DNA of 64,000 nt from Actinomycetota bacterium (GCA_013152275.1 JAADGS010000092.1:12793-76792); one strand, 5' to 3'; positions 275 through 18,487 are shown, counted from the stretch's first letter. Notes: a model not told the origin generated them from the letters alone. Made by a program: numbers and translations.

Positions 275-275
275 G

Positions 276-1172
276 ATGACGCTGGATCCCACGACGAAGA
301 GCGGTGCCTGGTACCTGGCTTCGCGACCGCACACCCTGCCTGCGGCCCTCGCCCCCGTGGCGGTCGCCGCAGGGCTCGCCATCGGCGACGGTGCCTTCAG
401 ATGGGGACCGCTCATCGCAACGGCGATCGGCGCTCTCGCCATCCAGGTGGCCGCGAACTTCACCAACGATCTCTCGGATGCGCGCAAGGGCGCGGACAAC
501 GAGGACCGGATCGGCCCGCAACGTGCCGTCGCGTCCGGTCTGCTCACCGAACGTGCGATGGAGCTCGGCACCTGGGTCGCGTTCGCCGTCGCGACGGTCG
601 CAGGGGTGTATCTCTTTGCGATCGCAGGGTGGGTGATCGTGATCGTCGGGGTCGCATCGATCCTCGCGACCCTCGGCTATGTGGGCGGGCCGAAACCCTA
701 CGGGTACCGGGGCCTCGGCGAGGTGTTCGTGTTCGTGTTCTTCGGTCTCGTCGCGACCGTCGTGTCGCGTTTCGTGTATGACCGTGCGGCACCACTGGAC
801 GCCTGGCTGTTGGCGATCCCGATGGGGTTCCTGGTCACCGCCATCCTGGTGGCGAACAACGTCAGAGACATCGAGACGGACCGTAGCGCCGGCAAACGCA
901 CCCTTGCGGTGATCATGGGGCGAGATCGCACGAGGATCCTCTTCGACGTGCTCGTGTGGGGATCGTTCGTCCTGATCGGCGTGTTCGCACTCGCCGGATG
1001 GACGCCGGCCTGGACGGCGCTTGCACTGGTCACCGCTCCGCTCGCGATTCCCTTGACGGGCACGATCCATCGCGAGACGTCGGGGCCCGCGTTGATCGGC
1101 GTGCTGAAGGGGGTCGCCCGTCTCGACCTGGTGTTCGGCATTCTGGTGGCCATCGGCGCCGCAATCGGCTGA
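276..1172 (+). CDS. menA: 1,4-dihydroxy-2-naphthoate polyprenyltransferase (UbiA superfamily, about 8 TM helices)
   Basis: ATG at 276 is in frame with ORF 189..1172. The protein is a polytopic membrane protein with the UbiA-type motif NDLSDARKGADNEDRIGPQR and follows menB. The longer ORF start at 189 overlaps menB and is unlikely. Confidence 0.85.
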   Translation: MTLDPTTKSGAWYLASRPHTLPAALAPVAVAAGLAIGDGAFRWGPLIATAIGALAIQVAANFTNDLSDARKGADNEDRIGPQRAVASGLLTERAMELGTWVAFAVATVAGVYLFAIAGWVIVIVGVASILATLGYVGGPKPYGYRGLGEVFVFVFFGLVATVVSRFVYDRAAPLDAWLLAIPMGFLVTAILVANNVRDIETDRSAGKRTLAVIMGRDRTRILFDVLVWGSFVLIGVFALAGWTPAWTALALVTAPLAIPLTGTIHRETSGPALIGVLKGVARLDLVFGILVAIGAAIG

Positions 1173-1317: not shown

Positions 1318-3477
1318 GTGATGACCCGATTGAGATATCTCGTGGTCGGCGTTCTCGGATTGTTCCTCATTCTGTTGGTCGCAGGGTGCGACAACAAGGC
1401 CGCCGAGACGACCACGACGACGAGTCCACCACAGACCACAACCACAGCCACCGCTACCACAGCCCCGCCGACCGTCGAGCCGGCGGTGGAGATACCATTC
1501 CTCGCCGACTGGCAGGGATCCGGCCACGCCGATGCGAGCGCCGAGGCGTTCAATCACTGGAACGATGACGACCCGGCGATCATCCCCGCCCGCTGCGCGA
1601 AGTGTCACAGCACACCGGGCTTCCAGGACTACGTCGGCGCCGACGGCACCGCATTCGGGACGGTCGATGCCGACGCTGCGATCGGGACGACGGTGGAGTG
1701 CGTCGCCTGTCACAACGACGCGACCCTGAAACTCGACCATGTGACGATGCCTTCCGGTGTCGAACTCACCGGCCTCGACGCCGAGGCGCGATGCATGACC
1801 TGCCACCAGGGTCGGGCATGGAAGGGCACCGTGGACGAAGCCGTTCAGGGAATCGATGAGGACACGGTCTCCGAAGACCTCGGCTTCATCAACATCCACT
1901 ACTTCGCAGCGGCAGCGACCAAGTACGGGACCGTGACGAAGGGCGGCTACGAATACGACGGCAAGTCGTACGACGCGGTCTTCGCACATGTGGACGGATA
2001 CTCGACGTGTATCCAGTGCCACGATCAACACACGCTCGAACTCAAGGTCGACGAGTGCTCGACGTGCCACGCGGGAGTGTCGTCGGTCCAAGACCTCGAG
2101 AACATCCGGATGGCCGGCTCGGAAGTCGATTACGACGGCGATGGCGACATCACCGAAGGCATCGCCTCCGAGATCGAAGGTCTGCAAGAGAAGCTGTACG
2201 CAGCAATCCAGGCGTACGCCTCGTCCAAGGTCGGCACACCGATCGTCTACGCCGCAGAGTCGTACCCGTACTTCTTCGTCGACACGAACGCGAACGGCGA
2301 CGCCGACGGGGAGGAAGCCTCCTACGGCAACAAGTATGCGAGCTGGACCCCGCGACTCCTGAAGGCGACCTACAACTATCAGGTCTCCATCAAGGATCCC
2401 GGCGGGTATGCCCACGGCGGCAAGTACATCATCGAGCTGCTCGTCGACTCGACCGACGACCTGAACTCGGTGCTGTCATCGCCGATCGCCATGACCGACG
2501 TGCACCGCATCGACGCCGGCCACTTCGCAGGATCCGAAGCGGCGTTCCGCCACTGGGACAAAGACGGTGAGATCCCGGCGTCGTGCAGCAAGTGCCACTC
2601 GGCGACCGGTCTCCCGCTCTTCTTCAAAGAAGGCGTCACGATCGCGCAGCCGGTTTCCAACGGCCTCTTGTGCTCGACCTGCCACAGCGATCTGTCGACC
2701 TTTGATCGATACGAGGTTGCTTCGGTGACCTTCCCGAGTGGGGCAAAGATCGACAGCGGCAGCAACAACATGAACCTGTGCATGACGTGTCACCAAGGCA
2801 GGGAGTCGACCGTGTCGGTCGACAAGCTGATCGGCGACACGAAGGCCGATGTGGTGAGCGACTCGCTCCGGTTCCTGAACGTGCACTACTTCGCGGCCGG
2901 AGCGACGATCTTCGGAGACCAGGCGAAGGGCGCCTACGAGTACGCGGGCAAGACCTATGTCGGCTACAACGAGGATCACCCGCTGAACCAGTGCACCCAG
3001 TGTCACGATCAGCACGCCCTGGAAGTCCGGGTCGACAAGTGCTCGGCCTGTCACGGCACGGTCGCCACCGAGGACGACCTGCACGCCATCCGCATGTCCA
3101 GCATCGACTACGACGGTGACGGCGACACGACCGAAGGCATGTGGGACGAGATCCAAACCATGCGGGCCGACCTGCTCGCCGCCATCCAGGCCTACGCGGC
3201 CAAGACGGCGGGGGCCGAAGCGATCGTCTACGACCCGAACTCGTACCCGTACTACTTCATCGACACGAACGGCGATGGAGTGGCCGGCGCCGACGAGGCG
3301 AACTACGGAAACCGCTACGGCACATGGACACCCCGCTTGCTGCGGGCCGCGTACAACTATCAGTACGCGACGAAGGATCCGGGCGGGTTCGCCCACAACG
3401 GCGAGTACATCGTCCAGACCCTGTACGACAGCATCAAGGACGTCGGCGGCGATGTCTCGGGGATGACCCGACCGTAG
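1318..3477 (+). CDS. Decahaem c-type cytochrome lipoprotein with internal tandem duplication (two pentahaem modules, each followed by a ~150 aa haem-free domain)
   Basis: Signal peptide with lipobox LVAGC, then a Thr/Pro-rich linker (ETTTTTSPPQTTTTATATTAPPTVEP). There are 10 CxxCH motifs: CAKCH, CVACH, CMTCH, CIQCH, CSTCH, then CSKCH, CSTCH, CMTCH, CTQCH, CSACH. The two halves are clearly paralogous (e.g. ...RCMTCHQGRAWKGTVDEAV... versus ...LCMTCHQGRESTVSVDKL...; YPYFFVDTNANGD versus YPYYFIDTNGDGV). RBS GGAGG lies 8 nt upstream of the ATG. Confidence 0.9.
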   Translation: MMTRLRYLVVGVLGLFLILLVAGCDNKAAETTTTTSPPQTTTTATATTAPPTVEPAVEIPFLADWQGSGHADASAEAFNHWNDDDPAIIPARCAKCHSTPGFQDYVGADGTAFGTVDADAAIGTTVECVACHNDATLKLDHVTMPSGVELTGLDAEARCMTCHQGRAWKGTVDEAVQGIDEDTVSEDLGFINIHYFAAAATKYGTVTKGGYEYDGKSYDAVFAHVDGYSTCIQCHDQHTLELKVDECSTCHAGVSSVQDLENIRMAGSEVDYDGDGDITEGIASEIEGLQEKLYAAIQAYASSKVGTPIVYAAESYPYFFVDTNANGDADGEEASYGNKYASWTPRLLKATYNYQVSIKDPGGYAHGGKYIIELLVDSTDDLNSVLSSPIAMTDVHRIDAGHFAGSEAAFRHWDKDGEIPASCSKCHSATGLPLFFKEGVTIAQPVSNGLLCSTCHSDLSTFDRYEVASVTFPSGAKIDSGSNNMNLCMTCHQGRESTVSVDKLIGDTKADVVSDSLRFLNVHYFAAGATIFGDQAKGAYEYAGKTYVGYNEDHPLNQCTQCHDQHALEVRVDKCSACHGTVATEDDLHAIRMSSIDYDGDGDTTEGMWDEIQTMRADLLAAIQAYAAKTAGAEAIVYDPNSYPYYFIDTNGDGVAGADEANYGNRYGTWTPRLLRAAYNYQYATKDPGGFAHNGEYIVQTLYDSIKDVGGDVSGMTRP

Positions 3478-3716: not shown

Positions 3717-4913
3717 ATGAAACGATCCCTACTGCTGCTGGTAGTCGTTTTTGCAATGATTCTCGCCGCGTGTGCCGGACCGGCCGGCGACACAGGACCT
3801 GCAGGGCCCGCGGGGCCCCAAGGACCTGCCGGGCCGGCCGGACCTGCCGGACCCGCGGCGCCTGCCGCCGCAACCGTCGGAGCCGACTACGTGGGAACAC
3901 AGACGTGTGCCGGATGCCATCCGGACAACGCCGAGAAGTTCCTCAAGTCGGGACATCCGTACAAACTGAACAAGGTGGTCGACGGACAACCGCCGACGTA
4001 CCCGTTCACCGAGATCACCCAGGTTCCTGAGGGGTACACCTGGGACGACATCACGTACGTGATCGGTGGGTACAACTGGAAGGCCCGTTTCATCGGACTC
4101 GACGGTTTCATCATCACCGGCGACGAAAACGCCAAAACGCAGTACAACCTGCCGAACCCGACCATCGGGCTCGGAGACAATTGGGTCGCGTACCACGCGG
4201 GTCAACAGAAGGCGTATGACTGCGGTCCTTGTCATACGACGGGATACCGGCCCGAAGGCCATCAGGATGGACTCGAGGGGATTATCGGAACCTGGGCGGA
4301 GCCCGGGATCCAGTGTGAAGAGTGCCACGGCCCTGGAAGCAACCACGTGGCGGATCCGTATGGAGTCGCGATGAAGGTGGACGTGTCGTCCGAGGCATGT
4401 ACTTCATGTCACCGACGCGGGTCGACCCTGACGATCGACGCCAAAGGAGGATTCATCAAGCACCACGAGCAGGGTGAGGAGCTGTTGCAGACAAAGCACG
4501 CGTCCCTCAGCTGTGTCACGTGCCATGATCCGCATACAGGCGTCATCGCGCTACGTAAGGCCGGAGAGGACTTCGCAGCGAACTTCCCGTGTCAAACCTG
4601 CCACGAGGAACAGGCCGACTACCAGAAGTCGACCGTCATGTCGGGCTTCGTCAAATGCATCGACTGTCACATGCCACGGATCGTCAAGTCCGCGGTCGGT
4701 GATCCCGCTGCATGGACCGGCGACATCCGAACACACCTGTTCGCCATCGACCCCAACCTGACCAACCAGTTCTCCGAGGACGGCTCGGTAGCCAACTCGG
4801 CGATCACGCTGGATTGGGCCTGCAAGTCGTGTCACCGTGACGGTGGTACGGCGAGCGTCAAGACGGACGAGGAACTGAAGGCGACGGCCGAGGGATACCA
4901 CTCGAAACCGTAA
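3717..4913 (+). CDS. Octahaem c-type cytochrome lipoprotein with collagen-like (GPAGP)n N-terminal linker
   Basis: Signal peptide with lipobox ILAACAG, then GPAGDTGPAGPAGPQGPAGPAGPAGPAAPAAA. There are 8 CxxCH motifs: CAGCH, CGPCH, CEECH, CTSCH, CVTCH, CQTCH, CIDCH, CKSCH. RBS GGAAGGAGG precedes the ATG. Confidence 0.9.
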   Translation: MKRSLLLLVVVFAMILAACAGPAGDTGPAGPAGPQGPAGPAGPAGPAAPAAATVGADYVGTQTCAGCHPDNAEKFLKSGHPYKLNKVVDGQPPTYPFTEITQVPEGYTWDDITYVIGGYNWKARFIGLDGFIITGDENAKTQYNLPNPTIGLGDNWVAYHAGQQKAYDCGPCHTTGYRPEGHQDGLEGIIGTWAEPGIQCEECHGPGSNHVADPYGVAMKVDVSSEACTSCHRRGSTLTIDAKGGFIKHHEQGEELLQTKHASLSCVTCHDPHTGVIALRKAGEDFAANFPCQTCHEEQADYQKSTVMSGFVKCIDCHMPRIVKSAVGDPAAWTGDIRTHLFAIDPNLTNQFSEDGSVANSAITLDWACKSCHRDGGTASVKTDEELKATAEGYHSKP

Positions 4914-5433: not shown

Positions 5434-5460
5434 CGGCTCGCTGGGCTCGCCGTACTTCGT

Positions 5461-5497
5461 ATCTCGTATTTCGTACTTCGTATCGCTCGGCGCGCTC
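5461..5497. repeat. Heptanucleotide tandem array (CGTAYYT)x5 with GTAC phased every 7 bp
   Basis: The sequence reads cgtactt cgtatct cgtattt cgtactt cgtatcg. A second, longer copy of the same array is at 8457-8499. Confidence 0.7.
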
Positions 5498-7483: not shown

Positions 7484-8445
7484 CTGTCTGGTTCCTCCAG
7501 CCCGGCCATGCGCCAGGCTTCGTCGGGATCGTTCAGTCCGGCGAATGTCTCGCTGGCGGTGGCTGCCAGGGCACCGAGGGCGGTGCCCAGCCGGACGGCT
7601 TTCGGCGATGGTAGGCCCCGCAGGAGGCCGATGAGGACACCGGCCGTGAAGGCGTCTCCTGCACCGGTACTATCGACCGAGTCGACCTCGATTGCGGCCA
7701 CATGGCCACGTGTCTCGTCACAGTCGAACCAGCAGCCGTCGACTCCGTCGGTGACGACGGCCACCCGCACCCCTCGCCGTCTCAGCTCGGCGGCGGCGTC
7801 CTCGGGAGCGGATTCGCCCGTGATCGCCCGAGCCTCGGCCAGACTGGGGCAGAACAGGTCGGTGTGGGCAAGAGCCGGGTTCACCAGGTCCCAGTCGTTG
7901 GCGGCGTTGTAGACGACGTCGAGGCTGGTCTGCATCCCGTTCCGCTTGGCGTGGGCGAAGAGCTCTGCAAGGGGCTCGCCGTCGAGTGCCGGCAGCACCA
8001 GCGCACCTCCGACGTGGAGAAACCGCCCTTTCGTCCGCTCACGGATGTGCTCGGCGGTGAGGAATCGGTTGGCTCCGATCTGATGGAAGATGGTGCGCTC
8101 ACCGGCGTCGTCGACCAGGATGGCCGACGACGAGGTGTTGGCGTCGACCTCCACCCATCGGGTGTCGAGCCTGTCGCCCTCCACCGACCGGCGGAGTACC
8201 TCGCCGAAGAGATCCGGGCCGACCGGAGCGATCAGCGTCGTGCCGACCCCCATGCCGGCGAGTGCCCTGGCGGTGCGAAGCGCGCATCCGCCTTCCACCA
8301 GTGTCAGGTCGTCGACCAGTTGCAGGAGGCCGAGCGGAAAGGGGTGGCGGACGGTGCGGACAACGACGTCGCACACCGCTATGCCGGCACAGGTCACCTC
8401 GACCGAGGTCACGGCATCACCGGCGAATCGCCGGCGGTCGGGCAT
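7480..8445 (-). CDS. PfkB-family carbohydrate (sugar/sugar-acid) kinase
   Basis: Ribokinase-like fold motifs: an N-terminal di-Gly region, and the C-terminal DSTGAGDAFTAGVLIGLL anion-hole/ATP motif. The likely start is MPDRRRF at 8445, because the upstream part of the ORF covers the heptamer repeat. Confidence 0.8.
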   Translation of the reverse strand: MPDRRRFAGDAVTSVEVTCAGIAVCDVVVRTVRHPFPLGLLQLVDDLTLVEGGCALRTARALAGMGVGTTLIAPVGPDLFGEVLRRSVEGDRLDTRWVEVDANTSSSAILVDDAGERTIFHQIGANRFLTAEHIRERTKGRFLHVGGALVLPALDGEPLAELFAHAKRNGMQTSLDVVYNAANDWDLVNPALAHTDLFCPSLAEARAITGESAPEDAAAELRRRGVRVAVVTDGVDGCWFDCDETRGHVAAIEVDSVDSTGAGDAFTAGVLIGLLRGLPSPKAVRLGTALGALAATASETFAGLNDPDEAWRMAGLEEPDR

Positions 8446-8456
8446 TCGAGAGACTC

Positions 8457-8499
8457 CGTACTTCGTACTTTGTATCTCGTACTTTGTACTTCGTATCGC
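8457..8499. repeat. Heptanucleotide tandem array (YGTAYYT)x6, second copy; lies 12 bp upstream of the PfkB kinase start
   Basis: The sequence reads cgtactt cgtactt tgtatct cgtactt tgtactt cgtatcg. It shares the flanks ccgtacttcgta...tcgtatcgc with the 5461 copy. Confidence 0.7.
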
Positions 8500-8569
8500 G
8501 ACCTCGCGTCGATGCAAGACCGTGGGGCGGGCGTGGCCGCTCCCACGGACGACCGATCACCGACGACCG

Positions 8570-10135
8570 TCAATACCCCTGCGCCGGGGTGTGACACTGC
8601 GTGCACTTGATCTGTTTCCACGCGTCTCCGATGTCGACAGGATGCTGGAAGGCAAGACCGGCCACGCTGTTCTCGATGTCGGCGAGGTTGTCCGAGGGGC
8701 CCTGGGCGGCGATCGTATGACACGAGTTGCACGAAGAGGAGATCCGTGTCCCGTCATCGCTCTCCAGATCCGAGAAGTGGCACCGGAAACAGCCGTCGTT
8801 GACAAAGTGGCTGAGGTTGTCCTCGCGGGCCCGGTAGTCGGTCTTCATCTCCGGGAAGAAGTTGGCGTCGTAGATGCGCACCAGGGTGTCGGCGGCCTTC
8901 TCGACCTGGCCCTGATCCACCTTGCCGGGATACTGCTTCGCGTAGTAGGCCAGGAGCCCGGACCGGATCGCCTCGTCTGCCTCCGGTTTCGTGTCATATG
9001 GCGCGTTGAGCAAGGTCAGCCCCTGCCAGCGGACGAACGGGAGGTCCTTGGAGATCGTGCCCTTGGTCATCTCGAGGTTGATCGCCGTCGCCGGAGGGAG
9101 GAAGTCGTGACTGGGCCGGTTGTGGCAGTCCATGCAGTCCAAGATACGAACTTCGACGTCGGGCGAATCGGGATCGACCACCGCATCGGGACGCTTGAAG
9201 ACGGTGACCTTCCCCGTCTCGCCGTCCGTGAACCGCACCCAGATCATCTGCTGGCGCTTCTTGTCGGTCGTCACGTATTCGATCTTGTTCTCGCCGAGCA
9301 TGTGCCAGTGGATGCCCTCCTGCTTGCCGGTTCGGGGGTTCCCCCCACCGACTTTCATGAGCAGACTGATCGTCCACGGCGAGTTCGCCTCGTTGGTCCG
9401 GTAGTACGTTTTCGTGACGAGCTTCTCGCCATAGAACTGATCGGGCCAGTGGCATCCCTCACAGGTCTGTTGAGCAGGTCGCAGACTCGTCACCGGTGTC
9501 GGCACGGGACGGTCGTACGAGTTGGTCAGCACCGCCACCACCTGGCGGATACCGTCGATCTTGGCGCGCACGAAGAACGATGCGCCGGGGCCGATGTGGC
9601 ACTCTGCACAGGCGACGCGAGCGTGCGGAGACTGCTGATAGGTGACCCACTGTGGGTTCATCACCGTGTGGCACGCCTCCCCGCAGAACGTTGCGGAGTC
9701 GGTGACTTCGTACCCCTTGTAACCACCCCAGGCGACCGTGCCGAGCAACATCGCCGTGAGGATGCCGAACAGCGCAAGGGAGCGCATGTACCGGGGGTTC
9801 GACGGCTCGAACCGAAGGTTGAACCGGACGTGTTCTCCGCGCCGGCGAGCCCTGACGACCTGGATGCGGATGGCGAGCAGGAAGAGGATGAGGCCGAGCA
9901 GAACCACCGAGGGAAAACCGATGAATGTGACGAGTCCTCGATACGGGTTGCCGGCGGGTGAACTCAGGTCGACGAATGCGAGGATGGCGAACCCGAGTAT
10001 CCCGGCGACGACGAGCGCGCCGCCCACCGCAGCCAAAGGATGGCGGTAGAGGCTCCTGCCCTCGACCGCCTCGGCCTTGGTCTCGCTCTCCCTGTCACTC
10101 ACGCTCGATCCCTCCTCAACCGATCTCTGATCCAC
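8570..10135 (-). CDS. Membrane-anchored heptahaem c-type cytochrome (N-terminal TM helices plus 7 CxxCH); ImcH-like putative quinol oxidase
   Basis: Two N-terminal hydrophobic helices (ALVVAGILGFAILAFV; VTFIGFPSVVLLGLILFLLAI; SLALFGILTAMLLGTVAW). The 7 CxxCH motifs are CGEACH, CAECH, CEGCH, CMDCH, CFRCH, CNSCH, CTQCH. It is the last gene of the minus-strand cytochrome operon. Confidence 0.85.
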   Translation of the reverse strand: MDQRSVEEGSSVSDRESETKAEAVEGRSLYRHPLAAVGGALVVAGILGFAILAFVDLSSPAGNPYRGLVTFIGFPSVVLLGLILFLLAIRIQVVRARRRGEHVRFNLRFEPSNPRYMRSLALFGILTAMLLGTVAWGGYKGYEVTDSATFCGEACHTVMNPQWVTYQQSPHARVACAECHIGPGASFFVRAKIDGIRQVVAVLTNSYDRPVPTPVTSLRPAQQTCEGCHWPDQFYGEKLVTKTYYRTNEANSPWTISLLMKVGGGNPRTGKQEGIHWHMLGENKIEYVTTDKKRQQMIWVRFTDGETGKVTVFKRPDAVVDPDSPDVEVRILDCMDCHNRPSHDFLPPATAINLEMTKGTISKDLPFVRWQGLTLLNAPYDTKPEADEAIRSGLLAYYAKQYPGKVDQGQVEKAADTLVRIYDANFFPEMKTDYRAREDNLSHFVNDGCFRCHFSDLESDDGTRISSSCNSCHTIAAQGPSDNLADIENSVAGLAFQHPVDIGDAWKQIKCTQCHTPAQGY

Positions 10136-10201
10136 GCTAGTCGATCGGCCCTCACCGGCCTCACGACCGACCGTCTCTTCTTGTCGAACCTGTTCCTCGA
10201 A

Positions 10202-11461
10202 TCAGCCTTGCGGCGCGCCGGCGCCGATCCATGCCTTCACCAACGCCAGGTCCTCGTCCGTGAACTTGCCGAAATGCGACCCGTCCCCCACTTTGACGAT
10301 CACATGGCTCGCATCCGCATCACCGGCCACGAACCCGGGCTCACCACTATCACCCCCGGCCAGCAACCCCGCATACGACGTAACGTCCAGACCGGAGGCC
10401 GGCGCACTGCCACCGTGACATGACCCGCACGCCGCCTCGAACACCGCCGCCACACCGGAGTTCCATGTCACGCCGGCAGAAGCCGCCGTGGTCGAGGGCG
10501 TCGCAGCCGACGTGGTCGCCGACGCGGCCGCGGTCGTCGTCGGAGCCGCGGTCGTCGGTGGAAGGGTCGTCGTGGGAGGCGTGGTCGACGGTGGAAGGGT
10601 CGTCGTCGGCAGCGGCGTGTAGATGGGTCCGGCGAGCGGCGAAGGCGCGACGGTCGTGATCGCCGTCTGCTCGAACGTCACGAACTCGTAGACCCCCATC
10701 AGCATCACGGCGGCCAGGACGGTGAAGGCCGGCCAGTACCTGAGCGCTCGGTTGCGTCGCTCCTCGGGATCGGTCTCGATCCGATCCGTTTCCGCGTCGA
10801 TCGTGGCCAGTTCGAGCGGGTGGAGCTCTTTCATCTGGGCACGCGACAGGTACCCGGTGAAGATCGAAGGGTTGAAGTGCCGCCAATGGACGTCGTAGGA
10901 GTGCCAGACGATGATGGCCAGCACGGCGAGGACCGCCTCCCAACCGTGGGCCGCCTTGGCCGCCGGCACGAAGACCCCCGGGAGGAACCGGGTGGTGGCG
11001 ATCGGATTCCAGAGCATGAAGCCGGTCACCGCCATCAGTACGGTGCCCCACACCAGCGACCAGTACTCCATCTTCTCGCCGACCGTATACCGGCCCTCGG
11101 GAGGCGGGCCCGACGCCAAACCGAGGTTGAACCTGATCCAGCCCCACGCGGCCGACAGGTCCGCCTTCCCCGGGATCAGCGAATGGGGTCTGCGGAGCAC
11201 GAAGCGCTTGTAGCCCAGCACACCGAGGTGGTACACGAGCGAGAGCAGCAGAATGGTTGCGAGAATGTGGTGGATTCTGCGGGTGTAGTCGATCCCTCCG
11301 AAGAGCCCGATGATCCAGTCCGAGAACCAGCGGTCGGCGTATTTCTGCACCAGTCCGGTGATCGCCAGACCGGTGAACGTGATGACCTGGACGGCGTGCT
11401 CGATCCGGTCCGACACCGTGAACCTCAGGATCTTCTCGTCGGGACGCGTCGTCTCAGTCAT
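10202..11461 (-). CDS. Dihaem cytochrome b (FdnI/HydC/CybH-like membrane domain) fused via a Pro/Thr-rich linker to a C-terminal monohaem cytochrome c domain
   Basis: The N-terminal ~250 aa has 4-5 TM helices with conserved His residues (RIEHAVQV, RRIHHILATI, AAHGWEAV...VWHSYDVHWRH). The linker reads PLPTTTLPPSTTPPTTTLPPTTAAPTTTAAASATTSAATPSTTAASAG. The C-terminal domain carries CGSCHG. The start overlaps the nonahaem gene end by 8 nt. Confidence 0.85.
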   Translation of the reverse strand: MTETTRPDEKILRFTVSDRIEHAVQVITFTGLAITGLVQKYADRWFSDWIIGLFGGIDYTRRIHHILATILLLSLVYHLGVLGYKRFVLRRPHSLIPGKADLSAAWGWIRFNLGLASGPPPEGRYTVGEKMEYWSLVWGTVLMAVTGFMLWNPIATTRFLPGVFVPAAKAAHGWEAVLAVLAIIVWHSYDVHWRHFNPSIFTGYLSRAQMKELHPLELATIDAETDRIETDPEERRNRALRYWPAFTVLAAVMLMGVYEFVTFEQTAITTVAPSPLAGPIYTPLPTTTLPPSTTPPTTTLPPTTAAPTTTAAASATTSAATPSTTAASAGVTWNSGVAAVFEAACGSCHGGSAPASGLDVTSYAGLLAGGDSGEPGFVAGDADASHVIVKVGDGSHFGKFTDEDLALVKAWIGAGAPQG

Positions 11462-12554
11462 GTCGTCGCCTCCTGAGGCGAGCGGCGAGCCTTCTCCGCA
11501 CGTCGAGTCCCACGGCGAGGAGCATCGCGCCGATCACGAGCGGGATGAGGATCTTGTAGAACATGTTCACCCAGTACACGAGCGGGGCCTCGGTGGTGCT
11601 CGGCGCATAGTGACTCAGCCATGCGTCGGGGAAGTTCGCCGTGGCATCCGGGTGGCACCGCCGGCACGTGCCGAGCAGATTCTTCTTGTACACGGAGCTG
11701 TCCGTGTCGCTGGGCGCCTTGATGTCATGAACACCGTGACAATCGACGCACACGGGCTTGTTCGTGTCCTGACCGGGAGCCAGCTTCTCGAAGAGAACGA
11801 CCGTCGTGCCGTGAAAGTCCGACAGGTACGAACTGAACACGTTCGTGGAGATGCCGTACTTGTCCATCAGGGCCTTGTTGGCGTGACAGTCCGCGCAGAT
11901 CTGCGGCGAGAACAGCCGGAACGGCGAATCGTCATGCGGACCCTTCACGTCATGGACGCCGTGACAGTCCGTGCAGGTCGGGACGTCCGGGTTGCCGGTC
12001 GTGAGCGCCTCCCCGTGCACGCTGTCCTCGTAGGCGTTGTAGATCTCCGAATGACATTTCCTGCACATCAGCGGAATGTTGGTTCGAGGCTCGCCGGGCG
12101 GTTGGACGTTGTGGGAACCGTGGCAGTCGGTGCAGACGGCCGCCTCCGTGACGCCGGCCTGGCGTGCGAGCTCGTGGTCGCTGTCGCGAGTCCCCGTGTA
12201 CTCGGAGTAGTGGCACGTCGCACAGGACGTATACATCTGTAGCGTGAAGCCGCGGCGGCTCTCGGCGGTGATCGGAGCGTGCGGATACGTGGAGATGTCC
12301 GTGTGACAGAGAACGCACGCCACATCGAGCTTGCCGTGAACCGAATCGGCGTACTCGTGACCGTCGACGGCAATGTCGAGCGTCTCCCCCGAGGGCAGTG
12401 GTATTCCCAGCGAGCTTCCCTCGTGACAGGAGAGACAGTAGGAGTTGTCCCACCGAGGGTCGGTCTGCGCGGCTGCCCGAGATTGCCCACCGAGCAGGAT
12501 CGCCGTACCGATGATCAGTGCACCGAGTACAACGATCCTTCTACATCTTTGCAT
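11454..12554 (-). CDS. Nonahaem c-type cytochrome, secreted, with a C-terminal transmembrane anchor
   Basis: Sec signal peptide (cleavage near AAAQT). The 9 CxxCH motifs are CLSCH, CVLCH, CATCH, CTDCH, CRKCH, CTDCH, CADCH, CVDCH, CRRCH. The C-terminal hydrophobic helix ILIPLVIGAMLLAVGL is followed by RRRLAARLRRRRHD. Confidence 0.9.
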   Translation of the reverse strand: MQRCRRIVVLGALIIGTAILLGGQSRAAAQTDPRWDNSYCLSCHEGSSLGIPLPSGETLDIAVDGHEYADSVHGKLDVACVLCHTDISTYPHAPITAESRRGFTLQMYTSCATCHYSEYTGTRDSDHELARQAGVTEAAVCTDCHGSHNVQPPGEPRTNIPLMCRKCHSEIYNAYEDSVHGEALTTGNPDVPTCTDCHGVHDVKGPHDDSPFRLFSPQICADCHANKALMDKYGISTNVFSSYLSDFHGTTVVLFEKLAPGQDTNKPVCVDCHGVHDIKAPSDTDSSVYKKNLLGTCRRCHPDATANFPDAWLSHYAPSTTEAPLVYWVNMFYKILIPLVIGAMLLAVGLDVRRRLAARLRRRRHD

Positions 12555-12615
12555 GCGCGAACTGTCTCTTTTCCGAGTTGCGCCCCCACTCTAAGTACGG
12601 GTCCTCCATCCCCTC

Positions 12616-12633
12616 GGGACCTTTGGACCTTTG
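12616..12633. promoter_or_regulatory. Tandem direct repeat GGACCTTT GGACCTTT in the 106-bp region upstream of the cytochrome b/c operon; candidate operator
   Basis: Read directly from the sequence. It is the only intergenic space upstream of 12554. Confidence 0.3.
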
Positions 12634-12660
12634 CCGACCGCAAAAGACCCTTACTGGATC

Positions 12661-13965
12661 TCAGAGCCCGGCGAGGATCTCTCGCAAAGAGGGGCCCTTG
12701 ACGATCTCGATCCCGTAGGTGACGCGCGTTCCCGGCATGTCGAGGTCCAGCAGCGGAAGCAGATTGACCGGTGTGGCGACAACCACGACTTCGGGGTTCG
12801 CCCGCCTGATCGTTTCGGCGAGTTCGGCCCGCTGCTCTTCTCCGTAGCCCATCGCCGGGAGGAGCCGGCCGATGTGGGAGAACTTCGCAAACGTGTCGGC
12901 GATCGAACCGACGGCGAAGGGACGAGGGTCGATCAACTCGGCCGCCCCGAACTGCCTGGAGGCGATGACACCGGCACCGTACGCCATACCGCCGTGGGTC
13001 AGCGTCGGTCCATCCTCGACGACAAGCACACGCCTGCCGGCGATGAGGTCCGGGTCGGCGACGGTGATCGGCGAGTGGGCCTCGAGCACGACCGCGCTCG
13101 GGTTCGCCTCCCTCACGTCGGCGAGCACCGCGGCCACGTTCTTCTCCTCCGCAGTGCCGACCTTGTTGATCATCACCACATCGGCGCGCCGCAGGTTGGC
13201 CTCGCCCGGCCAGTATCTCAGTTCATGCCCCGGGCGGTGCGGGTCGACGACACAGATGTGCAGGTCGGGCCGGTAGAAGGGAAGATCGTTGTTCCCGCCG
13301 TCCCAGAGGATGACATCGGCTTCCTGCTCGGCGAGACGCAAGATCGCCTCGTAATCGACACCGGCGAAGATGACGCCGCCCTGCTCGATGTACGGTTCGT
13401 ACTCCTCGCGCTCTTCGATCGAGCAATCCGCGTCGATGAGGTCCTGATTGCTCGCGAACCGCTGAACCGCCTGTCTGACGAGATCTCCATAGGGCATGGG
13501 GTGGCGAATCGCCGCGACGCGTCTCCCCGCGGCGTTGAGCGTATGCCAGACGGCACGGCTGGTCGGAGATTTCCCCGCGCCCGTTCTGGCGGCCGTGACG
13601 GCGACGACGGGCAGGTCCGAAGGGATCATCGTCTGCGCACCGGGAAGCTCGTAGGAGGCGCCTGCCGCCACGGCACGCGCAGCGAGGTGCATCACGTGCT
13701 CGTGGGTGACGTCCGAATAGGCGAAGACGACCCGATCGACGTTGTAGACGGCGATCAGACGTTCCATGTCCTCCTCGGGGAGGATCGGGATCCCGTACGG
13801 ATACAACTCGCCCGCCAGCGATGCGGGATACCTCCTGCCGTCGATGTTCGGAATCTGTGTGGCGGTGAACGCCACGACGTCATAGTGAGGATCGTCCCGG
13901 TACAGAACGTTGAAGTTGTGAAAGTCCCGTCCGGCAGCCCCCAGAATCAGTATCCGTTCGCTCAT
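12661..13965 (-). CDS. Rossmann-like plus P-loop NTPase domain protein (cyclic 2,3-diphosphoglycerate synthetase-like or DUF1611-like); function uncertain
   Basis: Start MSERILILGAAGRDFHNF is preceded by GGAGG. The internal Walker-A-like motif is VTAARTGAGKSPTS. Length is 434 aa. The longer ORF to 14022 lacks an RBS. Confidence 0.55.
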   Translation of the reverse strand: MSERILILGAAGRDFHNFNVLYRDDPHYDVVAFTATQIPNIDGRRYPASLAGELYPYGIPILPEEDMERLIAVYNVDRVVFAYSDVTHEHVMHLAARAVAAGASYELPGAQTMIPSDLPVVAVTAARTGAGKSPTSRAVWHTLNAAGRRVAAIRHPMPYGDLVRQAVQRFASNQDLIDADCSIEEREEYEPYIEQGGVIFAGVDYEAILRLAEQEADVILWDGGNNDLPFYRPDLHICVVDPHRPGHELRYWPGEANLRRADVVMINKVGTAEEKNVAAVLADVREANPSAVVLEAHSPITVADPDLIAGRRVLVVEDGPTLTHGGMAYGAGVIASRQFGAAELIDPRPFAVGSIADTFAKFSHIGRLLPAMGYGEEQRAELAETIRRANPEVVVVATPVNLLPLLDLDMPGTRVTYGIEIVKGPSLREILAGL

Positions 13966-14022
13966 TGCGACCTCCGTAACAACAGTCCCACTATTGTCGC
14001 CGGATCGAGGGAACGCTCCCAA

Positions 14023-14775
14023 TCAACCGAGAAACCGCTCGATCTCGAGAGCGACCTTGCGGGGCGCCTCCCCGACGACGGCATGTCCTGCGTCCTCGAC
14101 GACCACGAGACGGCCTCCCGTGGCGGCGGCCACCCGTTCGGCGATGGCGACATACCGGGGATCCCGCTCTCCGGCGATGACCAGCACCGGCATTTCCAGC
14201 TCTTCGAGGCGATCCCCGTACCACGGCTGTGCCCCCTGGCCCATCCCCCGCAGGGCACCGGCGATGCCTCGAGCGGTGTTCTCCAGCCGAAGCGCCACGT
14301 CCGCTTCGAGCCACGCGGCACCCCTTCGGTGAAGACCATCGAAGATCGGCCGGTTCATCCAGCGTTCGAAGAAGGACTCCAGGTCCTCACTCTCGATGAC
14401 ACGCGCCAGTGCCTCGTCACGGGTCTGCCGGACGAGGCGGCGCCGCTCGTCGGCGATCCCGATTCCCGTAGAGATCAGGATGAGGTGCGAGACGGCCTGC
14501 GGATGTTCGAGCGCGACACCGAGCGCGATGCGCCCGCCTTGCGAGTAGCCGAGGAGCGCTCGACCACCCGTCACGGCGGCGACCGCCGCGATCGCCGCGG
14601 GGAAGGTTGCCGGAAACGCTGCGGCTCCTCCATGACCGGGAAGGTCCGGAGCCAGGATCTCGCGTCCGGTGATCGCTGCCAGTTCCGCGAACATGCCTCC
14701 GTGCTGCGTGAAGCCGTGCAGCGCGACGATGGCAGGCGGCCGACCGGCGAATCTTCTGACGGGGAGTCCTTCCAT
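14023..14775 (-). CDS. Alpha/beta-hydrolase; positional MenH/BpoC-like (SHCHC synthase candidate), divergent from menD
   Basis: Nucleophile elbow GYSQGG. HG oxyanion motif in IVALHGFTQHG. Catalytic His near the C-terminus (DAGHAV). Synteny with menD resembles mycobacterial bpoC-menD. Confidence 0.65.
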   Translation of the reverse strand: MEGLPVRRFAGRPPAIVALHGFTQHGGMFAELAAITGREILAPDLPGHGGAAAFPATFPAAIAAVAAVTGGRALLGYSQGGRIALGVALEHPQAVSHLILISTGIGIADERRRLVRQTRDEALARVIESEDLESFFERWMNRPIFDGLHRRGAAWLEADVALRLENTARGIAGALRGMGQGAQPWYGDRLEELEMPVLVIAGERDPRYVAIAERVAAATGGRLVVVEDAGHAVVGEAPRKVALEIERFLG

Positions 14776-14783
14776 GGACTGTA

Positions 14784-16433
14784 TTGTTGCTGCTCGTGAG
14801 CAACTCCGCCTACAGAGCGACCGCCGTGCTCGTAGCCGCCCTCGCCCGCCTGGGTCTGCGGCATGCGTGCCTCACGCCGGGATCGAGGAACACGCCGCTG
14901 TCACTCGCATTCGCCGAGCACCCCGACGTCACCGATTGGATCCACCACGACGAGCGGTCGTCGTCCTTCTTCGCCCTCGGGCTCGCCAAGGCGACGAGGG
15001 CACCGGTTGCCGTGGTGACCACCTCCGGAACCGCCGCTGCGGAGCTCTTCCCTGCCGCCGTGGAAGCCCGCCACGGGACGGTGCCCCTCCTGCTGATCAC
15101 CGCGGATCGTCCCCCGGAACTTCGCGGTATCGGCGCTCCCCAGACGATCGACCAGGTCGGCATGTTCGGGGAGATGGTGCGCCGGTCGACCGACGCGATG
15201 CTCACCGAACTGGGTCCGGACGGAATCACCGATCTGGCCGTCGCGACGTGGAACGAGGCGATCCGGCGCCCGGGCGGCCCGGTCCACCTCAATCTCGGCT
15301 TCCGCGAACCGTTCGTTCCCACCGATCTCACCGTTGCCGAGGTCGACGTGCCCGCGGCCGACCCTGTCGGAAAGACGCCGGATGCGGGTTCCCTCCGGAC
15401 GGCTGCAGCGCTGCTGTCGGGCAAGCGAGCGCTCGTCGCCGCCGGCCCCCTCGACCATCCGGGTTTCACCGATGCCGTCACCGCACTGGCCGCCCAGGCC
15501 GGCTGGCCGATCCTGGCCGATCCGCTCAGCCAGCTGCGCGCAGGCCCCCACGATCGATCGCACGTGGTCACCTCCGGGGACGCACTCTTTCGCACGGACC
15601 GCATCCCGGGACCGATCGAAGCCGTGTTGCGCTTCGGGGCGCCTCCGACCTCCAAGGCGTTCATGACCTGGCTGGAGGGACATCCGCACGTCCCCCAAGT
15701 CGTCGTGGACGAGGTCGGCGGCCGGGACCCTTCCCGGACGGCACGGCTGATGATCACCGCCGATCCCGTCGAGTTCGCCGAAGCCCTGTCCGTCGAGCCT
15801 GTGGCCGCGGACTGGACGCACGCCTGGATGGATGCCGATGGACACGCCCGGGACGCCCTGGCGGGGATGGTGTTCCCCTCCGGGCCTGCCGTCGTGCAGA
15901 CCCTGGCGGAGCGACTCCCGGCCCGCTCGAACCTCTACGTCGCCTCCTCGATGCCGGTGAGAGATGTCGACCTGTTCTTCCCCTCGATCGACCGGCCGAT
16001 CCGACTGCTGGCGAACCGCGGCGTCAACGGCATCGATGGTCTCGTCTCTTCGGGTCTGGGCGCCTCCGCCACCGGCACGACGACGTTTGTCCTCACCGGC
16101 GACTTGTCCGCTCTGCACGACCTGGGGGCGCTCGCAACCGCTGCACGGCTTCGCCTGCCGGTCACGATCGTCGTGGTGAACAACGACGGCGGTGGCATCT
16201 TCTCGTTCCTCCCGCAGGCGAAGCTGCCGCGCCATTTCGAGCGGGTGTTCTCCACCCCGCACGGTCTGTCCTTCGTGCCCGTGGCCGAGGCGTTGGGTCT
16301 GCGCGCCGTCCACGTCGACCGCCGCGATCGGTTCGTTTCGGCGCTCGGTGAACCGGGGCCGTTGCTCATCGAGGTGACGACCGATCGCGATGCGAACGTC
16401 CGGATCCACGAGGAGGCGCTCGCGAGACTCTGA
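14784..16433 (+). CDS. menD: 2-succinyl-5-enolpyruvyl-6-hydroxy-3-cyclohexene-1-carboxylate synthase (ThDP-dependent)
   Basis: N-terminus ...NSAYRATAVLVAALARLGLRHACLTPGSRNTPL aligns with MenD N-termini. The ThDP-binding region GDLSALHDLG...VVVNNDGGGIFSF is present. The longest ORF starts at TTG 14784; GTG at ~14796 is an alternative. Confidence 0.85.
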   Translation: MLLLVSNSAYRATAVLVAALARLGLRHACLTPGSRNTPLSLAFAEHPDVTDWIHHDERSSSFFALGLAKATRAPVAVVTTSGTAAAELFPAAVEARHGTVPLLLITADRPPELRGIGAPQTIDQVGMFGEMVRRSTDAMLTELGPDGITDLAVATWNEAIRRPGGPVHLNLGFREPFVPTDLTVAEVDVPAADPVGKTPDAGSLRTAAALLSGKRALVAAGPLDHPGFTDAVTALAAQAGWPILADPLSQLRAGPHDRSHVVTSGDALFRTDRIPGPIEAVLRFGAPPTSKAFMTWLEGHPHVPQVVVDEVGGRDPSRTARLMITADPVEFAEALSVEPVAADWTHAWMDADGHARDALAGMVFPSGPAVVQTLAERLPARSNLYVASSMPVRDVDLFFPSIDRPIRLLANRGVNGIDGLVSSGLGASATGTTTFVLTGDLSALHDLGALATAARLRLPVTIVVVNNDGGGIFSFLPQAKLPRHFERVFSTPHGLSFVPVAEALGLRAVHVDRRDRFVSALGEPGPLLIEVTTDRDANVRIHEEALARL

Positions 16434-16436
16434 TCT

Positions 16437-16493
16437 CCCCGTTCTCGTGACGGTTGAGCAGGATTATTCCCGTCAACCGTCACGAGAACGGGG
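16437..16493. repeat. REP-like palindromic element copy 1 (21-bp arms CCCCGTTCTCGTGACGGTTGA / TCAACCGTCACGAGAACGGGG, 15-nt loop)
   Basis: Read directly from the sequence. It lies between convergent menD (stop 16431-16433) and menF. The right arm encodes the last residues and the TGA of menF. Confidence 0.8.
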
Positions 16494-17685
16494 GGATTTG
16501 GAGGATGTCGAGCAGCCCCCGCAGTTTCGCCTCGGTCTCCGCCACTTCGGCCACCACGTTCGAGTCCCGCACGATCCCGGCACCCGCGTACACGCGTGCC
16601 TCGTGGTTCCGAAGAAGGGCGCAGCGCAGGGCCACGGCCGCCTCCCCATCGCCGGAGGCGTCGGTCCATCCGACACCGCCCGCATACCAACCCCGATCGA
16701 TCGCTTCGACCTCTCGAATGTAGGCGAGGGCGGCGGCGGTGGGTGTGCCGCACACCGCGGGGGTCGGGTGCAGCGCCAGAGCGAGTTGGAGCACGCCCAT
16801 CGGCCTGGCGAGCAGCCCCCGGATCTCCGTCCCCAGGTGCAGGATGTTGGCGAGGCGCATGACCGTCGGACCGCCGGGAACCGACAGCTCCGACGTCAAC
16901 GGACCCAGCACGCGGACGATGTCATCGACGACGAACTGATGCTCCCTACGATCCTTCGCGCTCTCCAGCAGCGTCCGCGCCGACTCCTCGTCCTCGATCG
17001 AGCCCCTGCCACGCACCGCGCTGCCCGCCAGCGGAAACGATCGGATCGATGCCCCCCACCGTTCCACGAGCAACTCCGGGCTGGCACCCACGAACGCACT
17101 CCCATTCTCCACCCACCCGTACGCGAACGCGTCCGGAAACCGTTCCCGGAGCAAGGCCACGACGTCGAACGGCCGGATGTCGTCGAAGGCCAGCATCACC
17201 GAACGCGCCAACACGACCTTGGAGAGAAGCCCGGCTTCGATCGTCTCGCGTGCCCGTTCGACCATGTCCGCCCACACGTCGGATTCGGGATCCCTGGCCG
17301 TCACCCGGCCGACCGGCACGAGCGTCTCTCCCGGGTGATCGAGCCGACGGAGCATCGCCGGCATCTCCTCCTGGCCCGGAGCGATGCGAAGACGGCCTCC
17401 TCCCTCTCCCTTGACCAGGGTCACCGCCGGCAGGACGACGCTTCCGGTCTTCTTGGAACCGTCGAACGGAAACGCGAAGAACAGCCTGCCCTCGGAGGGA
17501 GGCCGAGCCAGGAGATCATCGCTGCGCCAGGCCACACCGACCCCGACTGCTTCCTCCCGACCTCCGAAGAAGAAGACGGGAGCGCCGGCGCGCGACGCTG
17601 CGCGGGCGAGATCGATCGGTTGCACCGCGCATGGCACCGACAGGCCCGCCGCCAGGTCGGTGCAGACATCGTTGGGAAAAAGCAC
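16480..17685 (-). CDS. menF: Isochorismate synthase (menaquinone-specific)
   Basis: Chorismate-binding enzyme motifs (PELLVER..., SFPLAGSAVRG, GWYAGGVGW). The longest ORF extends to 17793 and would overlap the upstream hydrolase by ~100 nt. A GTG at ~17685 (VLFPNDV) gives a 10-bp spacer and is preferred. Confidence 0.8.
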   Translation of the reverse strand: MLFPNDVCTDLAAGLSVPCAVQPIDLARAASRAGAPVFFFGGREEAVGVGVAWRSDDLLARPPSEGRLFFAFPFDGSKKTGSVVLPAVTLVKGEGGGRLRIAPGQEEMPAMLRRLDHPGETLVPVGRVTARDPESDVWADMVERARETIEAGLLSKVVLARSVMLAFDDIRPFDVVALLRERFPDAFAYGWVENGSAFVGASPELLVERWGASIRSFPLAGSAVRGRGSIEDEESARTLLESAKDRREHQFVVDDIVRVLGPLTSELSVPGGPTVMRLANILHLGTEIRGLLARPMGVLQLALALHPTPAVCGTPTAAALAYIREVEAIDRGWYAGGVGWTDASGDGEAAVALRCALLRNHEARVYAGAGIVRDSNVVAEVAETEAKLRGLLDILQIPPFS

Positions 17686-17695
17686 GGGACCGAGT

Positions 17696-18487
17696 TTACG
17701 GAGCCACGAAGGACACGATCTGCGCTGCGACGAGGTCCGGCCGCTCCATGGGAGCGAAGTGCGAGGCGTTCGGCAGTATCTCGAACCGTGCATTCGGAAT
17801 CAGCGCGGTGAACTCGGCGATGTAGTCGGCGGTGAATGCGGCGGATCGTTCACCGGCGAGCACCAGAACGGGCAGGTCCAGTTCCCCCAGGCGCAAGTAG
17901 GCGCCGTGAGTGATACCACCGCGGTACACCTCCGCCTCGACCTCCGGCCGGCACTTCAGCCGCCAGACACCGTCTCTTTCGACGAGACCTCCGCGCACAT
18001 AGGCTTCGAGGGCACGCCGATCCCACGATGCGAACGGTCTGCGGTAATGCTCGACCGCCGCATCGATACTCTTGAATCCGTCCCTGCGCCGTAAGGCGCC
18101 CTGGACAAGCAGAGACAGCTCTCTCCTCCCGACCGCGAGCGGGAAGATCACGGGCTCGATCAGAACGAGCCCGGCGAACCTGCCCGGAGCCAGCAACTCG
18201 GCCATGGCGAGCGCCGCACCACCCATCGAATGTCCGACACCGACGACCGGCTCGGTGATCCCCGAGATGACCTCGAGCCCGTGCCTGGCGAAGTCCCACC
18301 AGTCGACCGGAAAGGAGGACAACGGCTCGGCGTCACCGTGTCCGGGCGCATCCCAGGCGATGATCGATCGCTCCTCCCCGGCGGCGCGCAGTTCGGTGAC
18401 CACCGGCGCCCACACCTCCTTGCAGAACCCCGTTGCGTGAGCGAGGGCAAGCCGGCCGTGCCCGGATGCGGGCCAACGCCGGGTCAA
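17696..18487 (-). CDS. Alpha/beta-hydrolase (second MenH-like candidate)
   Basis: Nucleophile elbow GHSMGG, HG motif in WDAPGHG, C-terminal His (NASHFAP). It lies upstream of menF in the same orientation. Confidence 0.65.
   Translation of the reverse strand: MTRRWPASGHGRLALAHATGFCKEVWAPVVTELRAAGEERSIIAWDAPGHGDAEPLSSFPVDWWDFARHGLEVISGITEPVVGVGHSMGGAALAMAELLAPGRFAGLVLIEPVIFPLAVGRRELSLLVQGALRRRDGFKSIDAAVEHYRRPFASWDRRALEAYVRGGLVERDGVWRLKCRPEVEAEVYRGGITHGAYLRLGELDLPVLVLAGERSAAFTADYIAEFTALIPNARFEILPNASHFAPMERPDLVAAQIVSFVAP

Follow-up and report, generated by a model that had tools for sequence, protein, structure and literature searches.

An actinobacterial operon encoding ImcH-like and split CbcL-like cytochromes is an ordinary representative of a widespread module

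Are two types of quinol oxidase that are regarded in Geobacter as alternative pathways, CbcL and ImcH, encoded together in an actinobacterial operon, and would such an arrangement be new? The question is raised by three cytochrome genes in a 64,000-nucleotide (nt) stretch of DNA from an Actinomycetota bacterium (GCA_013152275.1 JAADGS010000092.1:12793-76792). The whole of this stretch is henceforth called the window, and all positions are counted in its coordinates. A sequence-only reading had proposed three minus-strand open reading frames (ORFs) in the order nonahaem cytochrome c, dihaem cytochrome b with a C-terminal c domain, and heptahaem cytochrome. It had further inferred that three traits together would make a novel arrangement: the presence of ImcH and CbcL in one operon, the division of CbcL over two genes, and the fusion of a monohaem c domain to the b subunit. 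Our analysis confirms the three ORFs and their order, but none of the three traits is new. Instead, the operon is an ordinary representative of a widespread, little-studied module, the arrangement of which is common and partly documented. Its parts are as follows.

11454-12554, minus strand: nonahaem cytochrome c (gene 1), 366 amino acids (aa), with a signal, nine CXXCH motifs and a C-terminal transmembrane (TM) anchor
11454-11461, minus strand: 8-nt overlap of the gene 1 stop and the gene 2 ATG, ATGACTGA, with GGAGG upstream (read from the sequence)
10202-11461, minus strand: cytochrome b with a tethered monohaem c domain (gene 2), 419 aa, Pfam Ni_hydr_CYTB and PSCyt1
10652-11461, minus strand: FdnI/HydC-type dihaem cytochrome b domain, gene 2 residues 1-270
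10205-10651, minus strand: linker (gene 2 residues ~271-332) and C-terminal monohaem c domain (residues 333-419)
8570-10135, minus strand: ImcH-family heptahaem cytochrome (gene 3), ORF of 521 aa, with three N-terminal TM helices and seven haem motifs

The 8-nt overlap of genes 1 and 2, already pointed out in the sequence-only reading, is present, and together with the GGAGG before the gene 2 ATG it suggests that both genes are translationally coupled. Gene 3 follows after a gap of 66-99 nt. It more likely starts at the GTG at position 10102, giving 510 aa: a GGAGG lies 9 nt before this codon, and the NCBI and JGI records use the same start. The operon's deposited proteins include NOY57123.1 and NOY57125.1; 'bacterium BMS3Abin02/BMS3Bbin01' has near-identical ones, and the closest species representatives are Acidimicrobiia. 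Homologues of each of the three proteins number in the thousands, with E-values reaching 1e-200 and lower, a similarity that is far beyond chance. A frameshift artefact as the cause of the split between genes 1 and 2 was rejected, because the overlapping ATG has a Shine-Dalgarno sequence in front of it and conservation of the standalone nonahaem protein extends over 119 homologues. Every one of its 120 best matches is likewise a separate protein, 320-419 aa long. Scans of positions 8300-12900 for promoter and terminator consensus sequences gave no match, such scans being uninformative for a high-GC actinobacterium. The sugar-kinase, aldolase and oxidoreductase genes downstream are unlikely to belong to the operon, as they are separated from it by a 124-nt gap with a repeat element and have no relatives in related loci.

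We compared gene 3 with ImcH of Geobacter sulfurreducens (GSU3259), which combines three TM helices with a NapC/NirT-like region, has CXXXCH as the first of its seven haem motifs, and is needed for reducing acceptors above about -0.1 V (Levar 2014, PMC4251993). Homologues of ImcH measure 495-519 aa, and motif positions have been tabulated for 70 of them (Zhong & Shi 2018, PMC6295460). In gene 3, hydropathy peaks at residues 37-55, 71-89 and 117-135 coincide with AlphaFold2 helices at 33-58, 64-98 and 114-145, predicted with a high local distance difference test score (pLDDT). A CX3CH motif (CGEACH, residue 151) lies beside the third TM helix (TM3) and is followed by six CXXCH motifs; the heptahaem protein with N-terminal TM helices described previously thus stands with its seven motifs, one of which has to be corrected from CXXCH to CX3CH. 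The motif spacing is 25,49,109,115,20,42, against 24,49,106,117,20,38 in G. sulfurreducens (Table S3 of PMC6295460). A region of NapC/NirT/NrfH homology, spanning TM3 and the first haems, is detected by PF03264 (residues 122-209, E 1.9e-10), by the NrfH model TIGR03153 (residues 131-229) and by the NrfH structure PDB 2j7a_C (E 2.4e-6).

The haem-1 pocket is conserved as well. For Geobacter ImcH, Gln179 has been described as the distal ligand of haem 1, with Lys173, Tyr188 and Glu127 conserved (Pimenta 2023 preprint). Gene 3 carries the corresponding pattern K192-x5-Q198-x8-Y207, the Geobacter numbering (K173/Q179/Y188) being mapped by pattern and not by alignment with GSU3259. Across 84 aligned homologues, no substitution occurs in the seven motifs, at K192 or at Q198; position 207 holds Tyr in 64 of them and Phe in 19, and the acidic position 146 of TM3 is Asp or Glu in all 84. 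Identity of gene 3 is about 38-44% to most homologues of other phyla, which falls inside the range found in the census between the Geobacter group and other ImcH homologues (PMC6295460), and rises to 52-63% for a subgroup from Acidimicrobiia, Zixibacteria, Ignavibacteria and Calditrichota. GSU3259 itself is neither among the 120 best matches nor in the 80 genome loci described below, and among 150 representatives (50% identity) we recognised neither its haem-motif fingerprint nor a Geobacter source name. The AlphaFold2 model of gene 3 has a mean pLDDT of 60.8 and a predicted template-modelling score of 0.35, with haem regions below 50, so that only the three TM helices are usable.

Altogether, TM count, motif spacing and haem-1 pocket support the assignment of gene 3 to the ImcH family, all structural hallmarks of which are present, with G. 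sulfurreducens compared through published motifs; the proposed likeness to ImcH holds at the family level. Both proteins are alike in size (507 aa in G. sulfurreducens, 510-521 aa here), in the three N-terminal TM helices, in the CX3CH motif beside TM3 followed by six CXXCH motifs, and in the Lys/Gln/Tyr haem-1 pocket. They differ in that imcH is monocistronic in G. sulfurreducens, whereas here it lies in an operon behind a bc-type pair. Moreover, the host here is a probable single-membrane actinobacterium, and for that reason no periplasmic PpcA-type partner is expected. As a side observation on the published fingerprints, the first ImcH motif in Table S3 of PMC6295460 is seemingly placed one residue after the first Cys of CX3CH: the table implies a first spacing of 24, while this spacing is 25 in most of the retrieved family sequences inspected (P0395-P0460) and 24 in few.

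Gene 1 starts with a Sec-type signal (TM segment 7-25), carries nine CXXCH motifs between residues 40 and 297, and ends in a TM helix (332-350) that contains no His. Among 119 homologues, 118 have nine CXXCH motifs and exactly nine non-motif His residues are invariant; no conserved Met ligand pattern occurs in them. The nonahaem domain of CbcL has been measured to be all bis-His (PMC9129911), and the nine motifs and nine invariant distal His of gene 1 fit such a domain. The haem spacing of gene 1 is 40,31,30,23,30,26,49,28, compared with 23,25,23,24,29,28,43,28 in Geobacter CbcL; the first four spacings differ, whereas the last four of the two (30,26,49,28 and 29,28,43,28) resemble each other. 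The pattern extends, as 40,31,30,23,30,25,49,28, to homologues as distant as one in a Dadabacteria genome. PDB entry 28pb_A ('Cytochrome c', 278 aa) was dropped as a candidate structure of the CbcL domain, its match being weak and partial (E 2.4e-4) and confined to a generic multihaem region.

The relation of genes 1 and 2 to CbcL follows from single-chain proteins, in which a multihaem c part is joined to a Ni_hydr_CYTB part, found in the loci around ImcH homologues. In BLASTP searches against one fused protein of 657 aa, residues 36-364 of the nonahaem protein match its residues 26-415 (E 6e-41), and residues 2-215 of the b subunit match its residues 411-628 (E 3e-31); for the b half, E-values range to 5e-36. 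With junctions at 415 and 411, gene 1 ends where gene 2 begins, just past the first TM helix, and this colinear pattern is repeated in 48 fused proteins. These fused relatives show the haem-spacing fingerprints of the CbcL/MtrH/MtoC family given in Table S2 of PMC6295460, e.g., the 11-haem type in Dadabacteria and the 19-haem type in Marinifilaceae. Identity of genes 1 and 2 to the available fused relatives is about 28-38%. The family is defined by a single polypeptide in which an N-terminal multihaem c part is joined to a C-terminal six-TM b-type part; here there are two genes with an 8-nt overlap, while their TM total, one plus five, is likewise six. Gene 1 would thus correspond to the c domain plus first TM helix of CbcL/MtrH/MtoC-type proteins, and the comparison with fused relatives, rather than with GSU0274, supports the view that genes 1 and 2 encode a CbcL/MtrH/MtoC-type bc cytochrome in two pieces. 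Because of this end-to-start alignment with single-chain family members, 'split CbcL-like' is a fair label, and the division of CbcL over two genes that had been read from the sequence is borne out by BLASTP colinearity. With gene 3, similarity to both the ImcH and the CbcL families is supported at the family level, the lack of which had been named as evidence to the contrary. CbcL of G. sulfurreducens was not found among the 120 best matches nor in the 80 genome loci.

The b domain of gene 2 matches Pfam Ni_hydr_CYTB (PF01292) over residues 13-196 and also the formate dehydrogenase gamma model TIGR01583. In an alignment with E. coli FdnI, His22, His64/65, His172 and His187 fall on the ligands His18, His57, His155 and His169. 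Each of the 69 fused and split homologues carries His22, His64, His78 and His172, and 68 of them also have His187; absence of bis-His haem-b ligands, which would have spoken against the original proposal, is thereby contradicted by both alignment and conservation. The b-domain family keeps five His, where two haems need four: pairs 14-15 residues apart lie on TM2 (H64, H78) and TM4 (H172, H187), with H22 on TM1. Five candidate ligands have also been noted in CbcL as a possible basis of redox gating (Joshi et al.). The AlphaFold2 model of gene 2 (pLDDT 78.5), a prediction of the b-c fusion having been called for earlier, contains an FdnI-like core of four helices plus a fifth TM helix, so five helices in place of the four previously counted. 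A Pro/Thr-rich linker is disordered (pLDDT below 50 at 276-325) and leads to a confidently modelled c domain (high pLDDT at 333-413). In a Foldseek search with this model, chain C of 1KQF (1kqf_C, FdnI) was the sole significant structural match (E 2.2e-5, TM-score 0.69).

The C terminus of gene 2 matches PF07635 PSCyt1 (residues 345-391, E 1.7e-9) and has a single CXXCH motif (CGSCH) at 345. C345, C348, H349 and H396 are invariant in 40 homologues, in which no Met is conserved; His396 is the likely sixth ligand, and the domain is probably His/His-ligated and of low potential. Given the five TM helices of the model, the predicted location of the c domain is outside the membrane, where c-type haems must be attached. 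The pair PF01292 and PF07635 occurs in 119 of the 120 best gene 2 homologues, the exception being a truncated entry of 322 aa, and many of the 120 bear one to three further c domains. The monohaem c tail is thus a conserved trait of the whole b subfamily and not a novelty of this operon.

Compared with known systems, genes 1 and 2 share with CbcL (GSU0274) the nine bis-His c haems, the TM helix, the FdnI/HydC-type dihaem b domain and the total of six TM helices. In contrast to the single chain of CbcL, they are two translationally coupled genes, and the b subunit has an extra tethered monohaem c domain past its last TM helix. Gene 2 shares with FdnI, the gamma subunit of E. coli formate dehydrogenase-N (PDB 1KQF chain C), the fold and all four haem-ligating His, but it lacks FdnG/FdnH partners, adds the fifth TM helix and the c-type domain, and pairs with a multihaem cytochrome. 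Geobacter CbcBA (GSU0593-0594) is itself a split pair of c and b subunits, the b subunit CbcB reportedly without sequence homology to CbcL: CbcA has seven haems, and CbcB has four TM helices and three His, the fourth being supplied by the CbcA anchor. Judged by these published traits, CbcBA is alike in having a separate multihaem c subunit with one TM anchor and a separate dihaem b subunit, but here there are nine haems and all conserved His lie in a five-TM, FdnI/CbcL-like b subunit. The seven-haem CbcA, the three-His, four-TM CbcB and the sigma-54/BccR regulation that characterise CbcBA are not those of genes 1 and 2, and no BccR-like gene was seen among the annotated neighbours. Finally, split 'Cbc-like' clusters have been described as CbcL homologues in the Gram-positive Carboxydocella, which also has an ImcH homologue (PMC6085454); by description, those of Carboxydocella thermautotrophica have the same separate c subunit and dihaem b subunit. 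A split CbcL is therefore not new, considering these pairs, the split Geobacter CbcBA and the recurrent fission and fusion described next.

To what extent is imcH accompanied by CbcL-type genes elsewhere? A scan with an ImcH profile, using one genome per species, matched at least 600 species and returned 80 loci, which together with two fetched earlier makes 82. Among the 80 loci are representatives of Actinomycetota, Zixibacteria, Ignavibacteriota, Bacteroidota, Calditrichota, Acidobacteriota, Gemmatimonadota, Omnitrophota, Verrucomicrobiota, Dadabacteria, KSB1, Methylomirabilales and Binatia. A CbcL-type gene lies within the available flank in 50 of the 82 loci, a count that slightly underestimates split pairs. 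When only the 41 loci with at least 9 kb on each side are considered, 33 have a CbcL-type gene, fused or split, near imcH, across more than 12 phyla. Such a gene is located directly upstream of imcH and on the same strand in 34 of the 82 loci (26 fused, 8 split). The exact three-gene order recurs in the Acidimicrobiia loci L004 and L005 and partly in L007 and L009. Proteins of the 19-haem type are fused in L002, L013 and L040 and split in L030, L044, L052, L056 and others, indicating that gene fission and fusion are routine in the CbcL/MtrH/MtoC family. Likewise, consecutive locus tags of ImcH and CbcL homologues can be found for relatives of Geobacter in a published table (A2X79_01185/01190, A2X96_02395/02390 and A2X92_08560/08565; Zhong & Shi 2018, PMC6295460). 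These tags and the 33 of 41 fully flanked loci refute the novelty of ImcH and CbcL in one operon. An imcH gene beside a CbcL-type gene is the majority arrangement in the sampled genomes. The linkage is strong and apparently uncommented. Neither imcH-cbcL adjacency nor actinobacterial members turned out to be explicitly addressed in the literature searched.

The surroundings of the operon contain the following further genes.

189-1172, plus strand: menA, above the curated cut-off
1318-3477, plus strand: decahaem cytochrome c, 719 aa, with an N-terminal TM anchor and two pentahaem repeats
3717-4913, plus strand: octahaem lipoprotein, 398 aa, with lipobox LAAC, a (GPA)n collagen-like spacer and a domain resembling MtrC/MtrF domain II/IV (Pfam)
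12661-14022, minus strand: ORF of 453 aa, directly upstream of the operon with a 106-nt gap, containing a P-loop-like GAGKS
14023-14775, minus strand: menH-like, just below the curated cut-off
14784-16433, plus strand: menD, above the curated cut-off
16480-17793, minus strand: isochorismate synthase, above the curated cut-off

Menaquinone biosynthesis genes thus bracket the cytochrome genes on both sides. The ten CXXCH motifs of the decahaem protein, which has Pfam c7/c3 matches, are spaced 35,31,72,16 and 29,36,71,16, revealing an internal pentahaem duplication; orthologues with 58-64% identity adjoin imcH in the Acidimicrobiia loci L004, L017 and L023, and this protein may be the downstream electron acceptor of the operon. 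The octahaem protein is a putative cell-wall or surface electron carrier and operon partner. Its (GPA)n spacer directly follows the lipid anchor and could keep the octahaem domain off the membrane, inside the cell wall. For the 453-aa ORF, no Pfam, NCBIfam or PDB sequence match was obtained.

Two further observations concern the vicinity and the source of the operon. An AT-richer repeat of 36 nt is present at 5451-5486 and 8464-8499, with 92% identity between the copies and none expected by chance. It is built of units of about 7 nt (CGTACTT CGTATCT CGTATTT CGTACTT CGTATCGC). The copies flank a minus-strand sugar cassette comprising a pfkB kinase, a DeoC/LacD aldolase and a Gfo/Idh/MocA oxidoreductase, and one of them takes up the space between the imcH-like stop codon and the pfkB start; the repeat may be an operator or another regulatory repeat. 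Secondly, the closest relatives of all three operon proteins outside the source metagenome-assembled genome (MAG) (P0002, P0122 and P0276, on a 21814-nt contig, 78-86% identity) are labelled 'Gammaproteobacteria bacterium' in NCBI. Other close relatives are all labelled Actinobacteria or Acidimicrobiia, and the gammaproteobacterial label is probably a binning or labelling error.

Building on gene structure, family relationships, ligand conservation, topology and synteny as described above, we infer the quinol substrate, the direction of electron flow, the partner cytochromes and a division of labour by potential. It is reasonably probable that the operon serves extracellular electron transfer by supplying two menaquinol:cytochrome-c oxidoreductase modules to the chain, its host being an Acidimicrobiia-like actinobacterium that probably has a single membrane. 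In the ImcH-type module, menaquinol would be oxidised at an NrfH-like site on the outer face by haem 1 (CX3CH, His/Gln ligation), with protons released outside and electrons passing along the seven c haems; quinol oxidation at the outer face by Geobacter ImcH has been shown to be electroneutral (Pimenta 2023 preprint). In the second module, a CbcL/MtoC-type bc complex, the FdnI-type dihaem b would exchange electrons with the quinone pool and move them across the membrane, and its b haems would hand them to the membrane-anchored, all-bis-His nonahaem subunit that is co-made by translational coupling. The monohaem c domain, tethered by its Pro/Thr linker, could act as a swinging arm that replaces soluble periplasmic carriers and forms a mobile link to wall-spanning cytochromes. 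Both modules would feed the decahaem and octahaem cytochromes reaching through the cell wall. By analogy with Geobacter, where the CbcL-type bc route is described as the lower-yield one used at low acceptor potential, the ImcH-type and bc-type modules may serve high- and low-potential acceptors, respectively.

Several observations weigh against this interpretation. The gene 3 model (pLDDT 60.8) is too poor for a structural check of the quinol site, and the first four nonahaem spacings (40,31,30,23) are unlike those of Geobacter CbcL (23,25,23,24). An orthologue of the octahaem gene was not found in related loci, so this gene is not syntenic, and the linkage to men genes is not kept there either. 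In addition, proteins of the CbcL/MtrH/MtoC family occur not only in Fe(III) reducers but in Fe(II) oxidisers too (PMC6295460), so that electrons may flow in either direction. The same proteins could operate in reverse, with electrons from extracellular Fe(II), sulfide minerals or a partner cell reducing the menaquinone pool, as proposed for MtoC, and FdnI itself is a quinone reductase. The BMS3Abin02/BMS3Bbin01 MAGs, the source of the near-identical proteins, presumably stem from sulfide-deposit metagenomes. We nevertheless consider reverse flow unlikely, since ImcH homologues have so far been tied only to quinol oxidation in reducers (PMC6295460), an all-bis-His chain is typical of low-potential haems and suits electron export, and the annotated neighbours include no marker of carbon fixation or Fe oxidation.

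Electron export by two modules also has to be set against readings that differ on the role of the operon as a whole. The names carried by public annotations, NrfH and formate dehydrogenase gamma, reflect the best curated-model matches (NrfH TIGR03153, 55.9 bits; TIGR01583, 52.9 bits) and would make the proteins an NrfH/NapC- or FdnI-type anchor for a nitrite, nitrate, trimethylamine N-oxide or sulfur reductase or for a formate dehydrogenase. This is highly improbable and largely refuted: the scores lie far under the curated cut-offs (55.9 vs 134.2 and 52.9 vs 116; in a further NrfH/NapC-type comparison, 18.8 vs 310.6), and a protein of 510-521 aa with three TM helices and seven haems does not match the architecture of the tetrahaem NrfH of about 150 aa, proteins of the NrfH/NapC kind being small, with four or five haems and one TM helix, and encoded next to their reductase. 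Moreover, genes for NrfA, NapA, FdnG/H, or formate dehydrogenase catalytic or molybdopterin functions were found neither in the surrounding 30 kb nor beside homologues, so that the combination of best NrfH/NapC matches with a cognate reductase nearby, anticipated as a counter-argument, does not occur. A different objection is that the three proteins form one obligate unit, a supercomplex or, at the extreme, a Q-cycle-like loop that links the quinol site of ImcH on the outer face with the quinone site of the FdnI-type b subunit on the inner face. The tight operon at the present locus and the imcH-CbcL linkage (33 of 41 fully flanked loci; directly upstream on the same strand in 34 of 82) speak for such a unit; yet each protein works alone in Geobacter, where the genes are unlinked (PMC4251993 among the sources), some imcH loci have no CbcL-type neighbour, and functionally parallel enzymes commonly share operons. 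An obligate unit at this locus strikes us as very doubtful. The two oxidoreductase modules remain our preferred explanation.

Nothing in the operon overturns current understanding. The linkage in about 80% of the fully flanked imcH loci could mean that in most bacteria the two quinol oxidases make up one co-assembled, potential-sensing unit or supercomplex, of which the unlinked 'alternative pathways' of G. sulfurreducens would be a derived special case; we judge this quite unlikely. If it were true, the actinobacterial b subunit with its tethered c domain would show the wiring of such a unit in a cell without a periplasm. In the census of 2018, Actinobacteria had no listed CbcL homologue and only one atypical ImcH homologue (PMC6295460); searches limited to fused CbcL overlook split forms such as the present one. 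The operon is a clear candidate for the point where electrons enter extracellular transfer in Acidimicrobiia-like Actinobacteria that are uncultured. More generally, the joint travel of imcH and CbcL-type genes could guide the annotation of metal-respiring potential in metagenomes, and it raises the question of whether both quinol oxidases cooperate.

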